This document shows, piece after piece, positions 41,891 through 62,353 of a stretch of 64,000 bases of DNA (position 1 is the stretch's first letter; each line of letters opens with the position of its first letter). Location of the stretch: the NCBI GenBank assembly GCA_963722525.1, contig CAVRMM010000002.1, forward strand, positions 2,985,621 to 3,049,620, given 5' to 3'. The position numbers were made by a program, and so were the translations under genes. This DNA is from an uncultured Actinomycetes bacterium. GTDB lineage: Bacteria > Actinomycetota > Thermoleophilia > Gaiellales > F1-60-MAGs149. The notes beneath the pieces were generated by a model, which searched no databases, was not told the origin of the DNA, and worked only from the letters and a program-made list of their open reading frames with translations.

Positions 41891-43343
41891 CTACCGGTTC
41901 CCGGCGGCCTCGATGACGGCGGCGACGAGGCCGTCGAGGTCGTGATCCTGCGCCTCGGCGACGATCGGGACGCCGAGCTCGCGCATGGTCGCCGACGTGA
42001 CGGGACCGATCGAGACGCCGCGCACCGCGCTCAGGTCGTGCCCTGCGAACGCGGCGTGGAAGAAGCGCACGGTCGACGACGACGTGAACGTCACGAGGTC
42101 GGCCGCGAGGGGATCGCCGCCATCCGGGACCTCGGCCACGGTGCGGTACAGCGGTGTCACGTCGACGGTCGCGGCGCCGCCGTCACGCAGGCCGTCGGGC
42201 AGCGTGTCGCGCGCCTCCTCGGCCCGGGCCACCAGCACGCGCCGCCCGGCGACGCGGCCCGCCAGCGCCTCCAGCAGGCCCTCCGCCACTGCCCGCTCGG
42301 CGACGATGTCGGGCAGGATGCCGACCGCGCGGATCGCCGCCGCCGTGCCGGGGCCGATCGCCGCGACCTCGACGCCGGCCAGCAGGCGGGCGTCGCCGCC
42401 GATGCGTTCCAGCAGCAGCGCCGGCGCGTTCGGGCTGGTGAGGCAGACGAGGTCGTAGGCGGAGGCGTCGATGGGCGCTCCGGCGATCGGCTCGATGCGG
42501 ATCACCGGCGCCTGGACGACGCCGGCACCGAGGTCGCGCAGCCGGCGCACCAGATCCGACGCCTGCGTGCGCGCCCGCGTGACGGCCACCGTCACGCCGT
42601 GCAGCGGCCGGCGCTCCGCCCACGCGATGCCCTCGCGCAGGCCGGCGACCGGGCCCACCACGGTGATCGCGGGCGGCCGCACGTCGGCCGCGTCGTCGGC
42701 GATGGTCGCGAGCGTGCCGGTGACGGCCTGCTGCCGCGGTGTCGTGCCCCGCGCGATCACGGCGGTGGGGGTGTCGGCGGGACGGCCGCCGGCGATCAGC
42801 CGCGCCGAGATGTCGCGCAGTCCGCCGACGCCCATCAGGATCACGAGCGTGCCGCCGGCGCGCGCCAGCGCCTCCCAGTCGATGTCGTCTCGGCCCTTCG
42901 CCGGGTCCTCGTGCCCGGTGACGACGGTGAAGTGCGTCGCCAGGCCGCGGTGGGTGACCGGGATGCCTGCGTAGGCCGGTACGGCGACGGCCGACGTGAT
43001 GCCCGGCACCACCTCGTACTCGATGCCCGCGGCGCGCAGCGCCTCGGCCTCCTCCGAGCCGCGGCCGAACACGAACGGGTCGCCGCCCTTCAGGCGCACG
43101 ATGCGGCCGCCGCCGGCGCCCTTCTCCACCAGGCACGCGTTGATCTGGTCCTGCGACATCGCGTGGCTCGACGGCCCCTTGCCGGCGTAGATGCGCTCGC
43201 ACGCGCCGGGAGCCTCGGCGACGAGCTCGGGCGCCGCCAGCCGGTCGTAGACGAGCACGTCGGCGCGTGCGCACCAGGTCGAGGCCGCGGACGGTGATCA
43301 GGCCCGGATCGCCGGGGCCGGCACCGACCAGGTAGACGGTCAC
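41891..43343 (-). CDS. cobA: Uroporphyrinogen-III C-methyltransferase/synthase fusion CobA-HemD (frameshift near 43265)
   Basis: VYLVGAGPGDPGLITVRG, RLKGGDPFVFGRG.EE, VPGITS; HemD half VTRA..QA, TSPN, FTSSSTV, SIGPVT. Confidence 0.92.
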
Positions 43344-44195
43344 CGGATCGCTCCCAGCACCTCGGCTGCGAGGGCCACCGGATCGGCGCCGTCGGCCTGC
43401 TCGAGCGAGATCATGCCGTCGCGGTCGGCGTAGGCGATCAGCCGCCACTGACAGTCGCCGATGCGCACGGCGTGCGCGGCGACCGGCACGGTGCAGCCGC
43501 CGGCCAGCGCCCGCGTGACGGTGCGCTCGGCCTGCAGCGCGAGGGCGCTGTCGGCGTGCTCGGCGCCGGCCACGAGCTGCTCCTCGCCCGCCCGCACCTG
43601 CAGCACGACGATGCCCTGGCCCGACTCGGGCGGCATCTCGTACGGCTCGATGCGGAAGCCGATCTCGTCGCCGAGGTCGAGGCGGTCGAGGCCGCAGGCG
43701 GCGAGGATCACGGCGTCGAGGCCGCGCTCGGTGCGCTTGCGCAGCCGCGTGTCGACGTTGCCGCGCACCGGCTCGATGCGCAGGTCGGGGCGCAGCCGGG
43801 CGAGCTGCGAGCTGCGCCGCAGGGACGAGGTGGCGACGCGCGCGCCCTCCGGCACCTCGGCCCAGGATCGCGCCGGCCCGCACCCATGCGTCGCGCGGGT
43901 CGGCGCGCTCCAGGCAGGCGCCGATCGCGAGCCCGTCGCCCTCCTCGCCCGTGAGGTCCTTCGCGGAGTGCACGGCCACGTCGACGCGACCGTCGCGCAG
44001 CGCCGCCTCGATCTCGGTCGCGAAGATGCCGCGGCCGCCGATCTCGGCGAACGTCCGGCGCCGGTCGCGGTCGCCCTGCGTCGACAGCGGCACCAGCGCC
44101 ACGGTGTGCCCGAGCGCGCGCAGCGCCGTCGCCGCGAGCTCGGCCTGCACCATCGCGAGCCGCGACGCCCGCGTGCCGATGCGCACCTGGGTCAA
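43340..44195 (-). CDS. hemC: Hydroxymethylbilane synthase (frameshift near 43870)
   Basis: IGTR.SRLA..QA, T.GD, AVHSAKD, TSSLRR, RGNVDTRL.K, GGCTVP. Confidence 0.93.
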
Positions 44196-45433
44196 CTCGG
44201 ACCGAGGTCGAACAGGTCGCGCACCGTCTGGGCGAACTCCGGGCCGTCCTTCATGCGGACGGTGGGCTCGTGCAGCAGCTTGTTCACGATCGAGCGGGTG
44301 AGCTGCTCCATCACGGCCCGGTCACGGGGCGTCAGGTTCTCGAAGCGGCCGCTCACGCGGTCGAGCTCCTCGAGCCGGATCGTCTCGGCCAGCGCGCGCA
44401 GCCCGGTGATCGCCGGCACGACGTCGAGCGACGTGAACCAGCGCTGGAACTCGGCGGCGCGCACGGCGACGATCTCCTCGCCGGCCACGGCCTCGCCCTC
44501 GCGGGCCGAGCGGTTCTGCGCGGCGACCGACTCCAGCGCGTCGATGTCGTACAGGGCGACGCCGGCGAACGCACGGATGGCCGGGTCGATGTCGCGCGGC
44601 ACGGCCAGGTCGATGGCCAGCAGCGGCCGGCTGCTGCGGTCGCCGACCAGATCGGGCGTGACCAGGTGGTGCGGCGCATGGGTGGCCGAGACGACGACGT
44701 CGGCACCCGCCAGCTCCTGCTGCAGCCGGTCCATGGTGACGGCCGTACCGCCGAAGCGCTCGGCGAGGTCGACGGCGCGATCGACGGTGCGGTTGACGAC
44801 GCGCACCGAGCCGGCGCCGCGGGCGACGAGGCTGGTGACGACGACCTCGGCGGTCTGGCCGGCGCCGATCACCAGCACCGTGGCGCCGTCGAGCCGCCCC
44901 AGCGTCTGGTCGGCGAGGCCCGCCGCGACGCTGCCGACGGAGACGGCGGTGCGGCCGACGGCGGTCTCGTTGCGCACGCGGCGCGCCGTCTCGATGGCCG
45001 ACTCGAAGAGCCGCGAGAGGATGGGGCCCGCCGTGCGCTCGACGCGCGCCAGCGCCAGCGCCTCGCGCACCTGGCCGAGCACCTCGGCCTCGCCCTTGAC
45101 GACGGCGTCGAGGCCGGCGGCGACGCGGTAGATGTGCTGCGCCGCGTGCTCGCCGCGGTGGATGAAGAAGGTCGAATCGGGCACCGGGTCGTGCTCGCCC
45201 GCGATGGCGCGCAGCTCGGCGACGCCCACCTCGGCCAGGTGCGCCGCGTCGCGACCGACCAGGTACAGCTCCGTGCGGTTGCAGGTCGAGACGGCGATCG
45301 CCTCGTCGGCGTCGCCGGTCTGCGTGACACCGGCGACGAGGCAGCGGTTGCGGGCGCTGGTGAGCGCCAGCCGCTCGCGCACCTCGACCGGTGCGGTGCG
45401 GAACGACGCCCCGACGACGAGGTGAACGGTCAC
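44192..45433 (-). CDS. hemA: Glutamyl-tRNA reductase
   Basis: TAPVEVRE, STCNRTE, GLD.VV.GE.E.LGQ, IGAG, NRT, DLAVPRDI, KLLHEPT. Confidence 0.93.
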   Translation of the reverse strand: MTVHLVVGASFRTAPVEVRERLALTSARNRCLVAGVTQTGDADEAIAVSTCNRTELYLVGRDAAHLAEVGVAELRAIAGEHDPVPDSTFFIHRGEHAAQHIYRVAAGLDAVVKGEAEVLGQVREALALARVERTAGPILSRLFESAIETARRVRNETAVGRTAVSVGSVAAGLADQTLGRLDGATVLVIGAGQTAEVVVTSLVARGAGSVRVVNRTVDRAVDLAERFGGTAVTMDRLQQELAGADVVVSATHAPHHLVTPDLVGDRSSRPLLAIDLAVPRDIDPAIRAFAGVALYDIDALESVAAQNRSAREGEAVAGEEIVAVRAAEFQRWFTSLDVVPAITGLRALAETIRLEELDRVSGRFENLTPRDRAVMEQLTRSIVNKLLHEPTVRMKDGPEFAQTVRDLFDLGPS

Positions 45434-53091: not shown

Positions 53092-53529
53092 TTAGTACGC
53101 GCGGATCATCGCCTTCATGCCGAACGCCTCGTGCGAGTCGGCCGTGCCCTCGAACAACGAGCAGTACACGCGGTAGCGGCCCGGCTTCAAGTGGACGCTG
53201 AAGACCACCTCGCCCGGCTTGGTGCCGCTCTTCGCGACCACGCCGCGCGAGGCGATGATCCGGCCGGTGGTGTCGGCGACCGTCAGGTCGTGGTCGTCCA
53301 TGCCGAGGTTGTACACGTGGATCCGCACCGACCCGGCCCGGAAGTTCAGGTGCCCGGGGCGCACCGCCCACTCCGTCTCGTTGACGGCCATCGACCGCCA
53401 CAGCTTCACGTTCGGCGGCGGCGCGTGGGTGCGGTGCTTGCGCGCCTCGGCGGCCAGCGGCAGGACGGCCGTGGGCGCCGCCAGCACGGCGGCGCCCACG
53501 AGACCCAGTCGGAGACGGTGGCTGGTCAC
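53092..53529 (-). CDS. Secreted cupredoxin (type 1 copper) protein
   Basis: C-terminal part of ORF 53092..54255 from GTG 53529: signal peptide, N.G.DDHDL, LKPGRY.VYC...H...GM; start overlaps DUF1501 stop. Confidence 0.82.
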   Translation of the reverse strand: MTSHRLRLGLVGAAVLAAPTAVLPLAAEARKHRTHAPPPNVKLWRSMAVNETEWAVRPGHLNFRAGSVRIHVYNLGMDDHDLTVADTTGRIIASRGVVAKSGTKPGEVVFSVHLKPGRYRVYCSLFEGTADSHEAFGMKAMIRAY

Positions 53530-55052
53530 GCCGCCTTGAGCAGCTTGCTCGTGCCGTCGAAGCGGTTGATCGAGCCGGCCGGCAGGTCCGGGAGGTAGGA
53601 GGCCGGGTTCGTCTGGAACCACTCCTGGAAGATCGCCTTGTAGACGTGCCGGAAGTCGGTCGACACGCGCAGGTCGCCGTTGTCGGTGAGGCTGTTCAGG
53701 TTCGACGGCTGGCTCGCGAGCCCGCCCTTCACCCGGTTGCCGAGCACCATCATCGGCCCGCCGGCGCCGTGGTCGGTGCCGCCCGAGTCGTTCGAGTCGA
53801 CGCGGCGGCCGAACTCGGAGAACACGACCGTCATCACCTGGTCGCCGACCCCGCGGGCGTTCAGGTCGGCCTGGAAGGCGGCGAGCGCCGAGCCGAGCAC
53901 GGCGAGCTGCGGATCCATCGAGCTGACCTGGTCGCCGTGCGTGTCGAAGCTGCCCCAGTCGAGCGTCACGACGCGCGTCCCGAGCGGTGCGGCGAGCAGC
54001 TGCGCGGCGAGGCGGAGCCGGTTCGACAGGTACGAGTCCGGATACGCCGCCGGCGAACCGGCCGGATGCAGGTTGCGCACCTTGTTCGAGATCGACGTGG
54101 TGAGGCCGAACGACTGCCGGCTCCGGGCCAGCGCGGCGTTCGACTTCGTGGCGCCGACCCTGGCCAGCTTGTCGATCTGCAGGTTCGCGCTGTTGGCCGG
54201 CGTGACGACGTTGCGGACGTCGAACTGGATGCCCTGCAGGCCGTTCAGCGCGCACACGGGCGCCCGCGACGTGCGGATCTGCTTCGACAGCGACGAGTCG
54301 AGCGAGATGGCCTGCAGCGGGTTCAGCTGCGAGCCCTCGCGATCGAGGTAGCGGCCGATCCAGCCGGTGGTCTGCTTCTTCAGGGCACCCGCGAACCAGT
54401 AGTCGCGCGAGTCGAAGTGCGAGTGGTTGGCCGGGTTGTAGTCGGCGGCCGGGAAGACGGCCAGGTTCGAGCCCGCGCCGCCGGAGCCGTCGCCGAACAG
54501 CGTGTCGAGCCCGCCGGCGCCCGCCGGGATGCCCGCCATGGTGTACAGCTGGTTGTTCATCGCGCCGGAGAGCAGCGGGTTGGCGAACCCGATCGTGCCG
54601 CCGGCGGAGCCCGCGAACGGCGTGGCGCCGACCTGCTGCAGGTTCACCGACGGGCCCTGCAGCCGCGCGATGTTGGCGCGCTGCGCCATGTACCGGCCGT
54701 ACTGCCCGGCCTCCTGCGGCACGAACATGTTCAGGCTGTCCGCCCCACCCTGCAGGTAGATCAGCACCAGCTTGCGGGCGTTCGGGTTCTCCGCCGCCTC
54801 GGCCGCCGCCGCCTGCCAGATGCGGTTCCAGTCGAGCTGGGTGGCGGAGTAGATCGCCGCCATGCCGGCGACGCCGTTGACGAGCGCGGCGCGACGGTTG
54901 TACCGGCGTGCCCCGGGCACCTCCGCCGCTCCGCCCACGATCGCCTCGGTCGGGATCTCGAGCCGTTGGCTCGGGCGGAGGTCGGTGACCCGGCTATCGG
55001 ATCGCTCGCAGTCGGCGCACTTCAGCGCCTCGTTTCCATCAATGGTCGCCAT
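53526..55052 (-). CDS. DUF1501-family protein with Tat-like motif
   Basis: NRRAAL plus hydrophobic stretch; LV.I.L.GG.D.LN, SHFDS, TGW.GR, FDTH, SEFGRR, GTDHG, DFR.VY. Confidence 0.9.
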   Translation of the reverse strand: MATIDGNEALKCADCERSDSRVTDLRPSQRLEIPTEAIVGGAAEVPGARRYNRRAALVNGVAGMAAIYSATQLDWNRIWQAAAAEAAENPNARKLVLIYLQGGADSLNMFVPQEAGQYGRYMAQRANIARLQGPSVNLQQVGATPFAGSAGGTIGFANPLLSGAMNNQLYTMAGIPAGAGGLDTLFGDGSGGAGSNLAVFPAADYNPANHSHFDSRDYWFAGALKKQTTGWIGRYLDREGSQLNPLQAISLDSSLSKQIRTSRAPVCALNGLQGIQFDVRNVVTPANSANLQIDKLARVGATKSNAALARSRQSFGLTTSISNKVRNLHPAGSPAAYPDSYLSNRLRLAAQLLAAPLGTRVVTLDWGSFDTHGDQVSSMDPQLAVLGSALAAFQADLNARGVGDQVMTVVFSEFGRRVDSNDSGGTDHGAGGPMMVLGNRVKGGLASQPSNLNSLTDNGDLRVSTDFRHVYKAIFQEWFQTNPASYLPDLPAGSINRFDGTSKLLKAA

Positions 55053-56513
55053 TTACATCACCTGAGCGTCGGGGCCAGCAAGGACGAGCGCGCGGATCAT
55101 GCGCTGCCGCTCGATGCGGAGATCGGTACGGCCGGACGGCGCCCGTGCGGCGTAGTCCTTGATCGTTTTGTGGGAGCCGGTGGCGACCCACGGCCGGCCG
55201 ATCTCGCGCAGCGCGCGATCGACGGCCTGCGGTGCGGTCTCGCCCGGACGGTCCTTCGGTGCCTTGCGGTCGAGCAACTCGCCGGCGAGGGCGAAGCGCG
55301 ACAGCACGGTGTTGGTGTTCAGCCACGAGAGGCCGCCCTCCCAGCCGGAGACGTTCGGCGGGTTGTAGGGCAGCTGGCCCATGCGCTCGAGGAACTCGTA
55401 CGCGGTCTGGTCCTTGACGCCGAGGCCGAACGCGCGGTGCAGGCCGACGACGTAGACGATCGGCGGCTTGACCATGTTCGGCTCGGAGATCGACTCGAAC
55501 ATCAGCTTGTGGCTGAGGATCTTCCGCAGGACCGGGCGCAGCCGCAGCCCGGGCCGGCCCCGGACCGGCGTCAGGTACGTCTTCACCAGGTCGTTCATCG
55601 TGGTCGCGTCGGGCGGCGTGACGATGAACTCGTGCCACAGCTTGCGCAGCAGGAAGCGCGCGTGCGTGTCGTACGGCTTGCGGGCGTCGGCGGTGCTGCG
55701 GGCGGGCCGCTTCAGCACCAGCTCGACGGCGTCCTTCTCCGGGCGGTACTGCGGATCGCCGCGGCGGTAGGCGACGAAGTTGCCCTGCACGCCGAACGCC
55801 ATCTTCATGCCGTTCGACCAGCGGTTCGGGTTGAACTGGCTGCGCGGGTTGTCCGGGTCGTGCTCGTCGATCGTCCAGCCGGTGAACGACTTCGCGAGGT
55901 GCTTGACCTCGACCTCGGTGTAGCAGAAGCGCCCCTTCTCGTCCCGGACGCCGAGGCAGAACAGCTCCATCAGCTCGCGGGCGTAGTTCTCGTTCGAGTG
56001 GCCGCGGACGTTGTCCTCGCCCGTCAGGTAGCGGAGCATCGACGGGTCGACGGTGACGTCGTTGACGAGGTCGCGGAAGCTCGCGTTCGGGTTGGCGCCG
56101 AAGTTCGAGTACTTGCGGAACAGGTCGGCTTGCTTGCGCAGCATCTGCTGCGAGGGGCCGCCGTCGCGCCCGTTCGCGAAGTGCCGGTGCCAGAAGAACG
56201 CCATGCGCTCCGGGAACGGGTTCGTCGAGCGGATCATCCGGTCGACCCACTCGAGCACCAGGTCGACGTCCTCGGCGGTCGGGTCGAGCCGCTGGCCGTC
56301 ACGCGTCGGGGTTGGGCCCTTCAGCGCCGGCTTGGTGTTCAGGAACCAGTCGACGAGCGACACCACCGGCTTGTTCTTCCACTTCGCGCGGTCGGCCTCG
56401 GTCGGCCCGAACCCGGCGCGCCAGAAGAGCCGGTCGATCATCGGCACCGTCAGGCGCAGGACCTTCTTCTTCTTTTTCTTCCTTCTCTTCTTCTTGGCGT
56501 GCATCCCGCTCAT
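55053..56513 (-). CDS. DUF1800-family protein
   Basis: RAGFG, ERM.FFWH.HF, PSML.YL, NENYARELMELFCLG, FTGW, PPNV.GW. Confidence 0.92.
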   Translation of the reverse strand: MSGMHAKKKRRKKKKKKVLRLTVPMIDRLFWRAGFGPTEADRAKWKNKPVVSLVDWFLNTKPALKGPTPTRDGQRLDPTAEDVDLVLEWVDRMIRSTNPFPERMAFFWHRHFANGRDGGPSQQMLRKQADLFRKYSNFGANPNASFRDLVNDVTVDPSMLRYLTGEDNVRGHSNENYARELMELFCLGVRDEKGRFCYTEVEVKHLAKSFTGWTIDEHDPDNPRSQFNPNRWSNGMKMAFGVQGNFVAYRRGDPQYRPEKDAVELVLKRPARSTADARKPYDTHARFLLRKLWHEFIVTPPDATTMNDLVKTYLTPVRGRPGLRLRPVLRKILSHKLMFESISEPNMVKPPIVYVVGLHRAFGLGVKDQTAYEFLERMGQLPYNPPNVSGWEGGLSWLNTNTVLSRFALAGELLDRKAPKDRPGETAPQAVDRALREIGRPWVATGSHKTIKDYAARAPSGRTDLRIERQRMIRALVLAGPDAQVM

Positions 56514-56562: not shown

Positions 56563-59500
56563 TCATGGCCGCACCTCGAGCGTGATCGTGGTCTTCGTCC
56601 TGGCCGTCCTGGAGCCGGTCAGGGCCTTGCCCGACAGGCGGATGAGGTACGTGCCGGGCCGCCGCAGCGCGGGCGGCAGGCGCAGGTCGAGCGCCACGCG
56701 GCCGTTGCGCAGCACCGCCGCGGTGACGCTGGTGGCGACGGCGGTGCCCAGCAGGGCCTCCGCCTTGGCCGTGCCGAGCCCGACCCCGCGGGCGTTGACG
56801 CGGAAGGCGTACCCGGTCGGCGCGAGCGCCGCGGCCGAGACGATGATCCGCTTGCCGAGCGGCGTGACCACCGGCGCCTTGCGGCAGCCCTTGTTCTTGG
56901 CGGCTGCGGCGCGGACGCTGCCGCCCGCGTTCGACACCCAGCCGACGGGCGGGCTGAGGGCGACCACCGAGTAGCGCACGGCCACGCACGCGAGCGGCTT
57001 CGGCACCCGCAGCGGCCCGGCGACGCCGGCCGTCGAGACGAGCAGGCCGGTCTGCGGGCCGTTCTGTGCGATCAGGCCGACGCGGGCAGCCTCGGGGCTG
57101 CGGAGCGAGAACGAGACGTTGGCCTTGGCCAGCGCCACGTCGGACGGGGACTGCTCCGCCAGCTGGGCGCCCTCGAGGCCGCCGGGGATGCCGACGCCGC
57201 CGCCGGTCGCGACGAACCGCGAGCCGTCGAGCACGCCGTCGTCCGACCAGACGCGCACCATGCCGCCGTCGCCGCCGGGACCCGCGGTGTCCTGCGGACC
57301 GGAGCCGTCGCCGCCCGTGGTCTCGATGCCCTGCAGCGCGCCGACGCGCCGCGCGATGATGTCGACCGCGCCGCCGCGGCCGCCGGCCGCGCCGTTGATG
57401 ACGCCGGCACCGGGGGCACCGGCCCGTCCGCCGAGGGCGGTGACGCCCTGGGCGAGCGTGAGCGTGCCGTCCGCCGCGCGCAGCGTGACGCGGCCCGCGG
57501 GGCCGCCCACGTAGCCGGGCAGGCCCGCGCTCGGCGCGGCCGAGCCCTGGCCGCCATCGGCCTGCACCGCGCCGACGACCGTCAGATCGCCCGTCGCGTC
57601 GAGCTTGATCGGTCCGCCGGCGCCGCCGCGGTTCCCGCCCGCGCCGGCCGGCGTGGCCACGCCGGCGACGTCGATGTCGGCCGCGGTGATGTCGACGCCG
57701 CCGCCACCGTTGCCGGCGCCGCGACCGCTGCCGCTGCCGCCGCGGAAGCTGAGCGCACCGACGTCGAGCCGGCCGGTGAGACGCGCGACGACCGCGCCGC
57801 CGTGGCCGCCGTTGGCATTGGCGCCGGCGGTGGTGCCGGCGCCGCCGTCACCGGTGATGGTGCCGATCGTCGCGTCGTGCGCGAGCAGGTCGATGCGCGA
57901 GCCGTGGCTGCCGCGGAGGCCGCCGTTGGCACCGCCGGCGGCGATCGCGCCCGCCGTCAGGGTGTTGCCGGCGCGCAGGTAGACGGCGCCGGCGTCGCTG
58001 GCCGCGGCGTTCGCTCCGGCGGGCGTGCCGCTGGCGTCTACCGTGTTCTGCACGTGGAGGTCGCCGAACGCGACCAGCCGCGCGCGGCCCGACCGGCCGC
58101 CGGTCGAGGCGCCGGGCGTACCGCCGGTCACGTCGACGCTGCCGACGGCGACGTCGTCCGCCGTCACCGTGACGAGGCCGCCCGGACCGCCGGCACCGAC
58201 GCCGGCGCCGCTGCCGCCGGACGGCGCGAGGGCGCCGGGCGTCGTGAAGGCGCCGGTGGTCGAGACGTCGATCGTGCCGCCCCGGCCGCCGTTGGAGTTG
58301 CCGGTGCCGTTGCCGCCGTTCGCGGAGATGGTGCCGACGTCGAGATTGGGGCCGCGCAGCACGGTGATGCCCGCCGGGCTGCCGCCCGCCGCGCCGTTGG
58401 CGCCGCTGACGTTGATGCCGGCGACGTAGCTGTCGGCACCGGTGGCGATCGCCACCTTGCCGCCGGCCGTCGCGCCGTTGCTCGCCGACCCGGTGCCCGA
58501 TGCGTCGAGCGTGCCCGAGACCGTGAGCGGCCCGGTCACCTTGAGCGACATCGCCCCGGTCGGGCCGCCGCTGCCACCCGGCGACGTGCCGCCGGTGACG
58601 TCGACGCCGCCGAAGATGCGCAGGTTGGCGGCCGAGACCACGGCGGTGCCACCGCCGCCGCCGGGGCCCGTGGTGCTGCCGTTGCCGCCGGCGACCGACA
58701 GCCCCTGCAGCACGAGCTCGCCCGCGGTGCCGATGTCGACGACCGCGCCGCGTCCGCCCGGTGCGCCGGGCGTGGTGCCGTTGCCGCCGGTCGCTCCGAA
58801 GCCGCCCAGCACGTCGATCTGCGTTCCGCGCAGCACCACGCTGCCGCCGGCCGAGCCGCGACCGGCGCCGTTGGCGCCCTGGACGCCGATCTGCCCGGTG
58901 ATCAGCAGCGGGCCTCTAGCGCCGGCGGAGACCTTGCCGCCCGGCGCCGCGAGGTTGGTGGTTGAGGGCGAGCCGGCGGCGTCGAGCCCGCCGATCACGC
59001 GCAGCGATCCGGCCGTCGCGCTGAGCGAGATCTGGCCGCCCGCGCCGGCGAACCCGCCGCCTGCGTCACCGCCGCTGACGGCGATGCCGCCGCCGATCTG
59101 GAGCCGCGGGCCGCTGACGAGGACCACGCCGCCGCGGCCGGCCGGACCTGCCGCGCCGGCGCCGTTGCCGCCGGTCGCCGCGAGCGAGGGAAGCAGGACG
59201 CGCCCGGTGCCGACGACGTCGATCTTGCCGCCGTGCCCGCCCGGCGGGCTGACGGCGGCGAGGGTGCCGTTGCCGGCGGTCGCCGCGAGGCTCGAGGCGA
59301 CGATCGACGAGCCGCGCAGGCGGACCGTGCCGCCGTTGCCGCCGCCCGCAGGGGCGCTGGCGCCGCTGGCCGAGGCCGCGCCGACGATCAGCTTTCGCGC
59401 CGCGATCACCTCGATCCCGGAGGCCTGGCCGGCCCGGCCGTCGGCGGTTGCGCCGCCACCGTTGGCGGTCAGCGAGCCGACGGTCGCACGGCCGCGCGCG

Positions 59501-60351
59501 CCGACGCGGATCGCGCCGGCGTTGCCGCCCGACCGCTCGGCCGTCGAGCCGCCGCTGGTCTGGATGTTGCCGACGCGCACGTCGCCGCCGCGGACCGTGA
59601 CGCCACCGCCGAAGCCGCCGATCAGGCCGGCGCCGCCGTTGGAGCCGTCCGCGAGGATGCTGGAGCGGACCGAGATGTTCCCGGCCGATGAGACGACGCC
59701 GACGGCGCCGGCCGATGGGGCCCGGCCGGCTGGAGCGGGACCGCCGGTGTAGGGCCGGACGTCGACGTCGGCGCCGACGCTGACGCCACGCGCGCCGACC
59801 AGGGTGACGGAAGCACCCGGGGCGCTCACCGACTGCAGTCGCAGGAGCCCGCCGGTGGCGAGCGTGACGGCGCCGGACGGCAGGCCGCCGGTCGCCGCGG
59901 TGTTGATGGCGCCGCCGAGGGTGACGGCGGCACCGCTGACGAACAGCGCTCCGCCGAGCCGCGCCTGGCCGCTGCCGCCCTGCAGCGAGATGGGCGGCGT
60001 GATCTGCACGGCGCCGCGCGCGCGGATGGTCAGCGAGCGGCCGTTCGTGCAGCCGGCCGGGTTCCCCGCCTCGAGCGGATTCATCGGGTCCGGCACCCAG
60101 CAGCTCTGCAGCTGCGCGCGCGGGCCGATGTACAGCGAGTCGACGTTCAGGACCGTGTTGCCGGTCAGGCGCACCGTCGTGTTGATGTAGACCTTCGCGT
60201 AGGTCAGGGTGCCCTGCAGCAGCGGGGCGGGGTCGCCGTCGAGGACCACCAGATCCTCGGCCGCCTGCGCGCTGGCGGGCGCGGCGAAGGCGCCGAGCAG
60301 GCACCCGAGGACGGCGAGGCGTTGGAGCGGGAACTTCGATTGTCGAGGCAC
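56563..60351 (-). CDS. Large secreted Gly-rich repeat protein (PGRS-like) with basic C-terminal domain
   Basis: Signal peptide ending PASAQA; many (A/T)GG.G...GG.GG.(V/I).(L/I) units; start inferred at GTG 60351. Confidence 0.85.
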   Translation of the reverse strand: MPRQSKFPLQRLAVLGCLLGAFAAPASAQAAEDLVVLDGDPAPLLQGTLTYAKVYINTTVRLTGNTVLNVDSLYIGPRAQLQSCWVPDPMNPLEAGNPAGCTNGRSLTIRARGAVQITPPISLQGGSGQARLGGALFVSGAAVTLGGAINTAATGGLPSGAVTLATGGLLRLQSVSAPGASVTLVGARGVSVGADVDVRPYTGGPAPAGRAPSAGAVGVVSSAGNISVRSSILADGSNGGAGLIGGFGGGVTVRGGDVRVGNIQTSGGSTAERSGGNAGAIRVGARGRATVGSLTANGGGATADGRAGQASGIEVIAARKLIVGAASASGASAPAGGGNGGTVRLRGSSIVASSLAATAGNGTLAAVSPPGGHGGKIDVVGTGRVLLPSLAATGGNGAGAAGPAGRGGVVLVSGPRLQIGGGIAVSGGDAGGGFAGAGGQISLSATAGSLRVIGGLDAAGSPSTTNLAAPGGKVSAGARGPLLITGQIGVQGANGAGRGSAGGSVVLRGTQIDVLGGFGATGGNGTTPGAPGGRGAVVDIGTAGELVLQGLSVAGGNGSTTGPGGGGGTAVVSAANLRIFGGVDVTGGTSPGGSGGPTGAMSLKVTGPLTVSGTLDASGTGSASNGATAGGKVAIATGADSYVAGINVSGANGAAGGSPAGITVLRGPNLDVGTISANGGNGTGNSNGGRGGTIDVSTTGAFTTPGALAPSGGSGAGVGAGGPGGLVTVTADDVAVGSVDVTGGTPGASTGGRSGRARLVAFGDLHVQNTVDASGTPAGANAAASDAGAVYLRAGNTLTAGAIAAGGANGGLRGSHGSRIDLLAHDATIGTITGDGGAGTTAGANANGGHGGAVVARLTGRLDVGALSFRGGSGSGRGAGNGGGGVDITAADIDVAGVATPAGAGGNRGGAGGPIKLDATGDLTVVGAVQADGGQGSAAPSAGLPGYVGGPAGRVTLRAADGTLTLAQGVTALGGRAGAPGAGVINGAAGGRGGAVDIIARRVGALQGIETTGGDGSGPQDTAGPGGDGGMVRVWSDDGVLDGSRFVATGGGVGIPGGLEGAQLAEQSPSDVALAKANVSFSLRSPEAARVGLIAQNGPQTGLLVSTAGVAGPLRVPKPLACVAVRYSVVALSPPVGWVSNAGGSVRAAAAKNKGCRKAPVVTPLGKRIIVSAAALAPTGYAFRVNARGVGLGTAKAEALLGTAVATSVTAAVLRNGRVALDLRLPPALRRPGTYLIRLSGKALTGSRTARTKTTITLEVRP

Positions 60352-60420
60352 AGCTAGCTGAGCTACCGATCTCCGTAGGGGTCCGCGGCGCGAGCGGGAA
60401 CAGACCGCTCGACCCTCTAC

Positions 60421-60446
60421 ATCGGCTGGAGTGCCTGGGGACTTCA
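60421..60446 (-). promoter_or_regulatory. Sigma-28 (FliA/WhiG)-like promoter TGAAG-N15-GCCGAT
   Basis: About 70 nt upstream of the Gly-rich gene; same spacing as the motif before the Hcp-like gene. Confidence 0.55.
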
Positions 60447-60495
60447 TCACCCTGGCGAGCGACGCCTCGACTGGGTAACGGTAACTTTCAGGAGA

Positions 60496-61662: not shown

Positions 61663-62322
61663 TCAGGTCTTCTTGTTGGTGGCGACGTCGAACGAGAACG
61701 TGCGCGCCCCGATGGCAAGGGCGACCTCGCGGTACCGGAACGTGAGCCGCTCGAGCGCGCCGGCGCTGAACTGCTGCGTGCCCGAAAACAGCACCTCGTC
61801 GAACGTATAGGTGGCCCGCGGCGTGGTCGTGCCGGGGTTGAACAGCACCACCTCGAGCGTCGGGAAGCGCTTGCCGGTGAAGACGCCCTCGGTGCTGTCG
61901 ATGGTCAGCCCGTCGATGTCCTTCAGGACCTCGACGTCGGCGACCCTGACCTTGCCGGCGCCCGAGCCGCCGCCGCCCGAGGTGATCGACTCGTTGCTCG
62001 CGCCGAACGAGAAGGCGTGGATGGAGACGGTGGTCGGGCCCAGCGTGAGGGTGCCGACCACGACATCCCCGGGCGCGGCATCGCCGCCGGCCTGGCCCTT
62101 CTGGTTCCAGGTGACGACCTGCTCGCGCCGGTCGCAGTTCTTCGCCTTCGCGACCATCCGCAGCCGGCCGTCACCCTGCTTCGCGCAGGCCGTGATCGTG
62201 CCGTCGGCGCCGACCGGGATGGTCTTCGGCGACTTCGAGGCGATCGCCAGACCGCCGCCGGTGGCCAGCATGCCCGCCGCGACGGCCAGCGCGATCGTGA
62301 GGCCTCGCCGGTGCTCCCCCAT
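61663..62322 (-). CDS. Signal-peptide-bearing protein with C-terminal T6SS Hcp (TssD)-like domain
   Basis: SD GAAGGAG, ATG 62322; RR plus hydrophobic signal; I.AFSFG...GGGGSGAGKV, K.ID, GKRF, Y.F.EV, E.LTF.Y, FSFDVATNK. Confidence 0.75.
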   Translation of the reverse strand: MGEHRRGLTIALAVAAGMLATGGGLAIASKSPKTIPVGADGTITACAKQGDGRLRMVAKAKNCDRREQVVTWNQKGQAGGDAAPGDVVVGTLTLGPTTVSIHAFSFGASNESITSGGGGSGAGKVRVADVEVLKDIDGLTIDSTEGVFTGKRFPTLEVVLFNPGTTTPRATYTFDEVLFSGTQQFSAGALERLTFRYREVALAIGARTFSFDVATNKKT

Positions 62323-62353
62323 GGTTGCTCCTTCCGGGTGGAATGAGCACGCA

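Follow-up and report, generated by a model that had tools for sequence, protein, structure and literature searches.

A predicted exported Hcp-fold protein with a two-cysteine module in a Gaiellales genome without matched contractile-machine genes

The 64,000-nucleotide stretch of contig CAVRMM010000002.1 analysed here (the window), from an uncultured bacterium of the order Gaiellales, encodes close to one end a 219-amino-acid (aa) protein, P0001, whose C-terminal domain has the fold of Hcp, the tube protein in type VI secretion systems (T6SS). This domain is preceded by a signal-peptide-like leader, a small two-cysteine (2-Cys) module and a short linker. The fold, the order of the domains, the conservation of the protein, the module that it has in common with other proteins, and the lack of matches to contractile-machine genes in its genome are established here. 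In our preferred reading, which we hold with moderate confidence, P0001 is a T6SS-independent exported Hcp-fold protein and a stalk-less member of a modular family composed of a leader, the 2-Cys module, a collagen stalk and a variable head. For both export and T6SS independence, the inferential support is good.

An Hcp fold in a conserved gene

An earlier note on this DNA, made from the sequence alone, had recognised hallmarks of Hcp in the C-terminal part of P0001, and both profile and structure comparisons bore this out. The Pfam family T6SS_HCP (PF05638) matched residues 98-201 on positions 19-126 of its 129-position profile with 37.5 bits (cut-off 23.5; E 3.4e-9). A phmmer search of the PDB revealed similarity with Hcp1 PA0085 (1y12; E 1.2e-6), and a Gly-rich GGGxGAGK loop is common to both proteins. 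The AlphaFold2 (AF2) model consists of an Hcp beta-barrel with one flanking helix, and its predicted local distance difference test (pLDDT) values are 71-92 over residues 131-219. A Foldseek search using this model found 66 matches in the PDB at E<=1e-3; all of the matches listed are Hcp or engineered Hcp1 fusions. In VIA-align, residues 87-219 of the model were superposed on residues 2-162 of the 1y12 chain with a Z-score of 14.9 and a root-mean-square deviation of 4.3 over 126 residues. P0001 thus belongs to the Hcp sequence and fold family. The NCBIfam scan of P0001 gave no match, and the PHROGs scan gave a single weak one, to a family of unknown function (E 0.0033).

Compared with T6SS Hcps such as Hcp1 PA0085 (1y12) and EvpC (3eaa), the P0001 domain shows the same fold throughout, and its PF05638 match lies above the cut-off. 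However, P0001 carries about 85 extra N-terminal residues (leader, 2-Cys module and linker), its domain is shorter with two stretches reduced, and sheath, spike and baseplate genes are unmatched in its genome. The domain measures about 135 aa, against 156-165 aa in the signal-less forms compared; relative to signal-less Gaiellales Hcps, it is without two stretches, 'GES..D..HK' behind strand 1 and 'PQK.DGS' close to the C-terminus. The tubes of phages, pyocins and extracellular contractile injection systems (eCIS) have the same basic barrel but are clearly more distant: T6SS Hcps gave VIA-align Z-scores of 12-15, whereas the R-pyocin tube (5w5e), the PVC/AFP tube (6j0b/6rao) and lambda gpV (8k36) gave 7.6-9.9. 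Unlike those systems, P0001 comes from a genome without a match to the PF06841 tube or to a sheath, and it has no prophage context.

Table 1. Positions, in the window, of the gene encoding P0001, of its parts and of the adjacent signals
Feature	Position	Strand	Basis or remark
Complete coding sequence of P0001 (219 aa and stop codon)	61663..62322	minus	Intact open frame
Shine-Dalgarno-like GGAAGGAG	62328..62335	minus	Read from the sequence; 5 nt 5' of the ATG at 62322
Signal-peptide-like segment, residues 1-28	62239..62322	minus	Own hydrophobicity heuristic and conservation
2-Cys module, residues 35-76 (C46, C63)	62095..62220	minus	Conservation and profile; outside Pfam
Gly/Ala/Pro linker, residues 77-85, remnant of a collagen G-X-Y stalk	62068..62094	minus	Two triplets; longer in relatives
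Compact Hcp-fold domain, residues 86-219	61666..62067	minus	Pfam PF05638, PDB phmmer, Foldseek, VIA-align
15-bp G+C-rich hairpin, starting 8 nt past the stop codon	61619..61655	minus	-43 kcal/mol, z -2.99

A word-indexed protein search returned 39 proteins at E<=1e-3, mostly of 218-240 aa and with an identical layout. The orthologues fall into a class of 218-227 aa at 66-86% identity and a class of 233-240 aa at 48-55% identity, and 18 of them could be aligned end to end (50-86% identity). The named relatives are metagenome-assembled Gaiellales or Gaiellaceae. A second, region-restricted protein search recovered only close orthologues. Apart from a frameshifted tail in P0025, the length of the frame is constant across the 18 aligned orthologues. 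The ratio of nonsynonymous to synonymous rates (dN/dS) against two orthologous loci is 0.28-0.54, and residues 1-30 show not one nonsynonymous change relative to the orthologue at locus L015. Judged by these sequence comparisons, the gene is real, conserved and under constraint.

The open reading frame (ORF) and its own Shine-Dalgarno sequence are placed exactly as the earlier note had them (Table 1). The hairpin behind the stop codon was equalled by only 2 of 200 shuffled sequences and has no U-tract; it is possibly a terminator or an mRNA end. A consensus scan for promoters and terminators at the gene found none. A lookup of sequencing runs listed no RNA dataset and 14 DNA rows, each of small share.

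Contractile-machine genes, the two-cysteine cassette and exported Hcp proteins

Seven families of contractile machines were searched for in the genome, an assembly of 4.25 Mb in 3 contigs with 72.5% G+C. VipB/TssC (PF05943), Phage_GPD/VgrG (PF05954), Phage_sheath_1 (PF04984), gp25/TssE (PF04965), PAAR (PF05488), TssK (PF05936) and the T4 gp19-type tube (PF06841) all gave zero matches. Every one of these searches was positive in control genomes, but that for the gp19-type tube in only one, and there below the cut-off. Within the window, the domain scan of 41-64 kb likewise contained no T6SS or eCIS genes. From the order, 121 genomes were sampled, of which 62 are at least 90% complete; VipB was found in none of them, nor in the three genomes that hold the closest homologues. 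In this assembly, scored 61.84% complete, Hcp is thus found without the sheath (TssB/C), VgrG, TssE, TssK and PAAR, and no PF06841 tube accompanied by a PF04984 sheath and a nearby baseplate, as in an eCIS or a phage contractile tail, is present among the matches. The lack of machine genes in the genome, together with the absence of VipB from the 121 order genomes, makes conventional T6SS or eCIS use of P0001 very unlikely. The earlier note had remarked on the lack of sheath, VgrG and baseplate genes in the window; the genome-wide check, which included PAAR, extends this to the whole assembly.

The gene had also been called an orphan. This holds insofar as no T6SS genes were matched, but P0001 is not unique in its genome, because a second Hcp-family gene is present (C2:559455-559925; L001:1486-1956). 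It encodes 156 aa, covers the full PF05638 profile with 61.3 bits and has no signal peptide. Nothing machine-like was seen in the approximately 25 kb around it, as judged by our own ORF calls and inspection of the first 60 residues of each. Directly upstream (L001:1017-1484) lies a gene for a small protein with what looks by eye like a twin-arginine leader, and two genes upstream (L001:389-1012) is one for an exported protein with a 2-Cys module and Collagen. Several other genomes of the order likewise carry signal-less, strongly canonical Hcps (up to 136 bits), yet VipB was matched in none of the 121.

The 2-Cys module ties P0001 to a much larger set of proteins. DGTITACA, G52, R55, V57, C63 and EQ.VTWN show little or no variation across the 18 orthologues, and C46, G52, R55, C63 and E67 are invariant even among relatives of 25-37% identity. 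The small two-Cys module proposed in the earlier note is therefore upheld as C-x16-C with conserved G, R, E and W behind an N-terminal leader. The cassette family to which it belongs is defined in this analysis and has no curated counterpart: no Pfam family matched the module, either in P0001 or in the relatives scanned. In the AF2 model it forms three short strands. Of 8000 proteins scored with a profile built on the module by itself (A4, 14 rows), 690 matched at E<=1e-3; the P0001 copy matched at E 1.3e-17. Among the best 120 of these 690, the Pfam heads were the Lamin Tail Domain (LTD, PF00932) in 68 and Hcp in 24, while 7 had Collagen and no other Pfam domain, and 21 had no precomputed Pfam domain.

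A profile of the full protein (A1) matched 22 of the 121 order genomes. The match was full-length only in the genome of P0001 itself (G000) and in one congener (G108); it covered residues 7-189 in G026 and only the Hcp part in G049. In the other 18 genomes, only the leader and module were matched (query positions within 4-88), in frames of 255-561 aa, and all of those among the matches listed continue after the module with collagen G-X-Y repeats and then a different C-terminal domain. Pfam assigned Collagen plus LTD, or Collagen alone, to module-bearing frames. The genome of P0001 holds further cassette proteins. The one at L001:389-1012 has a Pfam Collagen match and a pairwise E of 7e-6 to the P0001 module; that at C2:3290352-3291563 (minus strand) has a leader, the module (profile E 0.003) and a long collagen run, which is followed by a different globular C-terminal head of about 130 aa. 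Read from sequence, the module is a widespread N-terminal cassette of predicted exported proteins of Gaiellales and their like, usually with a collagen stalk and a variable head behind it.

The module's most frequent partner, found at loci L006-L014 and L017-L019 of genomes from the order, measures about 300-350 aa and combines a collagen run with a short segment containing Cys, a stretch of poly-proline and the Lamin Tail Domain. This LTD cassette looks like an abundant, undescribed type of surface protein of the order.

The linker of P0001, which the earlier note had described as G-X-X, is present but amounts to two G-X-Y triplets (GQA GGD) with a pLDDT below 50. A true collagen-like run occurs only in relatives: those of 48-65% identity (P0018-P0029) have 4-7 triplets between the module and Hcp, and wider relatives match Pfam Collagen (PF01391 in P0043 and P0051), which P0001 does not, nor does it contain a collagen run. 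Because the 48-65% identical relatives keep their 4-7 triplets, the stalk has been lost in the lineage of P0001. With only two triplets left, the head would be placed directly on the module.

Hcp proteins with a similar N-terminus are numerous. An exhaustive, profile-free search of 1.84 billion representative sequences gave 595 matches at E<=1e-3, the best 150 of which were classed by our own hidden Markov models (HMMs) and a hydrophobicity rule. An Hcp domain was found in 141 of these 150, and a signal-like N-terminus in 98 of the 141; an extra C-terminal pair of cysteines occurs in 56 of the 141. Among the best 150, leader, module, G-X-Y repeats and one Hcp were combined in 39 proteins, a leader and one Hcp in 35, and G-X-Y repeats without the module and one Hcp in 2, while 16 were leader-bearing forms with two Hcp domains and 12 were long proteins that lack a classical leader and have four to six Hcp domains in tandem. 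Pfam found Collagen and two Hcp domains in P0043, and Collagen and one Hcp in P0051. By these sequence features, Hcp proteins bearing a probable signal peptide number in the hundreds. The earlier note had called for a survey of this architecture, and exported Hcp does recur; its picture of one domesticated Hcp is misleading in view of a large family with a shared cassette. A search of the full-text literature, with subscription journals and supplements outside its scope and with the Hcp passages of PMC3482391 within it, turned up no account of Hcp proteins that bear a signal peptide, stand on a collagen stalk or repeat the domain in tandem.

Proteins with six tandem Hcp domains (P0042, P0045, P0046, P0048, P0064 and P0113, all metagenomic) are 1125-1563 aa long and lack a classical leader. 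P0042 has six Pfam Hcp stretches (696.7 bits), and its AF2 model, made from a 7-row alignment, reached a mean pLDDT of 59 and a predicted template-modelling score of 0.49. In P0045 the domains alternate: domain 2 has the same sequence as domain 4, and domains 1, 3 and 5 hardly differ from each other.

In a weakly resolved FastTree phylogeny of 155 domains, the P0001 domain falls in a 45-row group (support 91) whose members mostly bear the module. Signal-less actinobacterial Hcps, together with the second Hcp of the genome, form a separate set, and the first and second domains of the two-Hcp forms lie in different parts of the tree; one row, L033, comes from an unpublished genome (G121). Of the 121 order genomes, 21 have Hcp-family matches (20 of 120 if the unpublished G060 is set aside), as do 14 of 401 genomes of the phylum (13 of 400 without G121). 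Leads from the ESM Atlas are clusters with PF05638 in which Actinomycetota is the commonest phylum; in one cluster, 17% of the members carry Collagen.

A signal peptide had likewise been proposed for P0001, and by our heuristic the leader is signal-like. It has a positive n-region (HRR) followed, under a crude rule of our own, by a 23-residue uncharged hydrophobic stretch (residues 7-29) that ends in GGGLAIA|S, with a putative cleavage site at A26-I-A28|S29. G23, G24, L25, A26 and A28 (GGLAxA) are invariant in the 18 orthologues. The leader resembles a Sec signal peptide cleaved at A-x-A, and we infer that P0001 is exported. In keeping with export, the two invariant cysteines lie in a module that elsewhere follows signal-like leaders, and 56 of 141 related Hcp proteins have the additional C-terminal Cys pair. 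A tube of a functional T6SS is cytoplasmic and signal-less, whereas P0001 has a conserved leader with n-, h- and c-regions (by the heuristic) and two invariant cysteines.

The earlier note had taken the cell to be a probable monoderm. Neither Omp85 nor LpxC was matched in the genome, scored 61.84% complete, which would fit a cell without a classical outer membrane; however, passages of PMC6741124 describe the one cultured member of the order as staining Gram-negative, with a thin peptidoglycan layer. A monoderm cell is plausible but not established.

Possible modes of action

VKOR is the usual actinobacterial partner in extracytoplasmic disulfide formation, and a VKOR homologue is encoded in the genome. 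In our preferred reading, the N-terminal segment would direct P0001 to Sec export, with a probable cut after A26-I-A28, and C46 and C63 would then form a disulfide outside the cell. By analogy with the collagen-stalked relatives, the module may nucleate or hold an oligomer, or tether the protein to the envelope. It would display the compact Hcp barrel as a surface-bound or secreted head, which may act through self-association or partner binding and not as a tube pushed by a sheath.

Several points weigh against this account. The leader was called by a crude heuristic, and its 23-residue uncharged stretch could be an uncleaved membrane anchor. The module was modelled with low confidence (pLDDT 54-66), and trimerisation by analogy is a weak argument for P0001 because P0001 itself has no collagen stalk. 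The shares of leader- and module-bearing proteins in the family survey are inflated because the query included both parts. With a genome scored 61.84% complete, the missing machine genes are no proof of absence, and the flanking genes for an aminotransferase and a flavin adenine dinucleotide (FAD) oxidoreductase hint at no function.

The protein could instead be a membrane-tethered form in which the hydrophobic segment is an uncleaved signal-anchor that holds the module and Hcp on the outer face of the cytoplasmic membrane. The uncharged stretch is indeed long (21-24 residues in 12 orthologues), and P0001 has neither a sortase motif nor a lipobox to account otherwise for retention. However, the A-x-A directly after the GGG helix-breaker is invariant in the 18 orthologues, as expected of a signal-peptidase site, and distant members of the family (P0056, P0065 and P0092) have ordinary short leaders, so that we regard permanent anchoring as unlikely. 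Much less probable still is a conventional tube of a T6SS, an eCIS or a prophage tail encoded elsewhere. Pfam and automatic annotation do name P0001 and its relatives 'type VI secretion system component Hcp', the weak PHROGs match points the same way, and genes could be missing from an incomplete genome. Set against this are the seven unmatched machine families, the absence of VipB throughout the order genomes, the conserved leader and module, and neighbours that are metabolic and syntenic, not phage genes. An equally improbable explanation is a decaying relic, an Hcp remnant without present function. Its faster evolution than the neighbouring genes (83% and 63% identity, where the aminotransferase keeps 94% and 92%) and the loss of the collagen stalk would suit a relic; the intact frame of near-constant length in 18 orthologues, the dN/dS values, the invariant positions of the leader and module, and the presence of a Shine-Dalgarno sequence and a 3' hairpin all argue the other way.

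The exported Hcp domains might also build an extracellular scaffold of hexameric rings, perhaps stacked into filaments, as the earlier note had supposed. We consider this possible but rather doubtful. The Hcp fold is complete; T6SS Hcps, which form rings, are its nearest structures (Z 12-15), and phage and eCIS tubes are more remote. A collagen stalk is a trimer; with two Hcp domains per chain, as in 16 of the 150 proteins classed (e.g., P0043), a stalked trimer would bring together six domains. Six Hcp domains also stand in tandem in single signal-less chains (P0042; five such among the 150). Solved engineered fusions (4ksr, 4kss, 6ap1 and 7o42) carry Hcp1 C-terminal to its partner, and we take them to form hexamers (the one title seen, that of 4ksr, reads 'GspE Hexamer'). 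On the other hand, stalked forms with a single Hcp are commoner than two-domain forms (39 plus 2 against 16), and their trimers would provide three domains, not six. One N-terminal module per subunit would probably crowd one face of a ring and hinder head-to-tail stacking, and the P0001 domain is without the two stretches, 'GES..D..HK' and 'PQK.DGS', of the signal-less Gaiellales Hcps. A four-copy complex prediction for the Hcp domain (residues 82-219) scored 0.20, below the mark of 0.42, and speaks neither for nor against self-association.

A wider proposal, equally tentative, is that, in bacteria without a contractile machine, Sec-exported Hcps make up a large and so far unrecognised class of modules that form rings outside the cell. 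They would sit on collagen-like trimeric stalks through a disulfide-stapled nucleation module, with six-domain rings assembled from three chains of two Hcp domains or from two single-domain trimers, and P0001 would be a stalk-less member. Phage T5 pb6 has duplicated tube domains and forms a trimeric pseudo-hexamer. The relatives of the P0043 type, with two unlike Hcp domains and a collagen stalk, resemble pb6 and also the Bacteroides Hcp2-Hcp3 heterohexamer (9vne, going by its title), but this likeness is confined to the relatives and does not extend to the single-domain P0001. If the proposal is correct, the class would represent an independent extracellular use of the tail-tube fold.

Bacterial collagen-like surface proteins such as Bacillus BclA and Streptococcus Scl consist of a leader, an N-terminal non-collagen domain, a G-X-Y stalk and a globular C-terminal head. 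The cassette family of P0001 follows the same plan, with the module, Collagen and a head that may be LTD, Hcp or another domain, but P0001 itself is down to two triplets and its module lies outside Pfam. We know of no Hcp head among those of bacterial collagen-like surface proteins. To return to our preferred reading, we propose by this analogy that P0001 may work more like the head of such a surface protein.

Pipelines label PF05638 matches in Actinomycetota as 'type VI secretion system component Hcp'. Since Hcp-family proteins occur in 21 of the 121 order genomes and the sheath in none, counting Hcp would mislead a census of T6SSs. Should exported Hcp barrels assemble outside the cell, the tail-tube fold would lead an existence independent of contractile machines. 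The collagen-stalk cassette with its swappable heads (LTD, Hcp and others) would in that case amount to a surface-protein system, so far undescribed, of soil actinobacteria that branch deeply and are mostly uncultured. The 2-Cys module may be a new trimerisation or anchoring unit of bacterial collagens, themselves of interest as biomaterials.

Gene neighbourhood and further observations

A search for related loci with profile A1 returned 5 loci. The gene order aminotransferase III, Hcp-like gene, FAD oxidoreductase (DAO) and a gene for a 1295-aa protein is kept in two loci from Gaiellales metagenome-assembled genomes (MAGs), and it was against these two loci that the identities of 83% and 63% for the Hcp protein, and of 94% and 92% for the adjacent aminotransferase, were obtained. 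Surface and secreted proteins commonly change faster. A prophage origin of the gene was rejected, because the flanking genes are metabolic and the synteny is conserved.

The 1295-aa protein (56563-60450, minus strand) is Gly-rich and repeat-like; it carries a signal-like leader, matches no Pfam family and is 83% and 71% identical to its counterparts in the two syntenic MAG loci. Downstream of its gene, on the same strand, lies a DUF1800/DUF1501 pair (53526-56513). Farther away, at about 43340-44321 (minus strand), hemC, which encodes porphobilinogen deaminase, is broken near 43.87 kb into two frames. Only Pfam positions 112-205 are covered by the ORF called there, and the gene is either a pseudogene or affected by an assembly indel; if the frameshift is an indel error, errors of this kind may lower the completeness score of the 3-contig, 4.25-Mb assembly.

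In loci L015 (5876-6748) and L016 (7262-8116), a gene that by its motifs, read by eye, resembles a membrane-anchored polysaccharide deacetylase stands between the Hcp-like gene and the FAD oxidoreductase gene. A functional link of P0001 to its neighbours was rejected, since this deacetylase-like gene is absent from the window, where a 78-bp gap takes its place.

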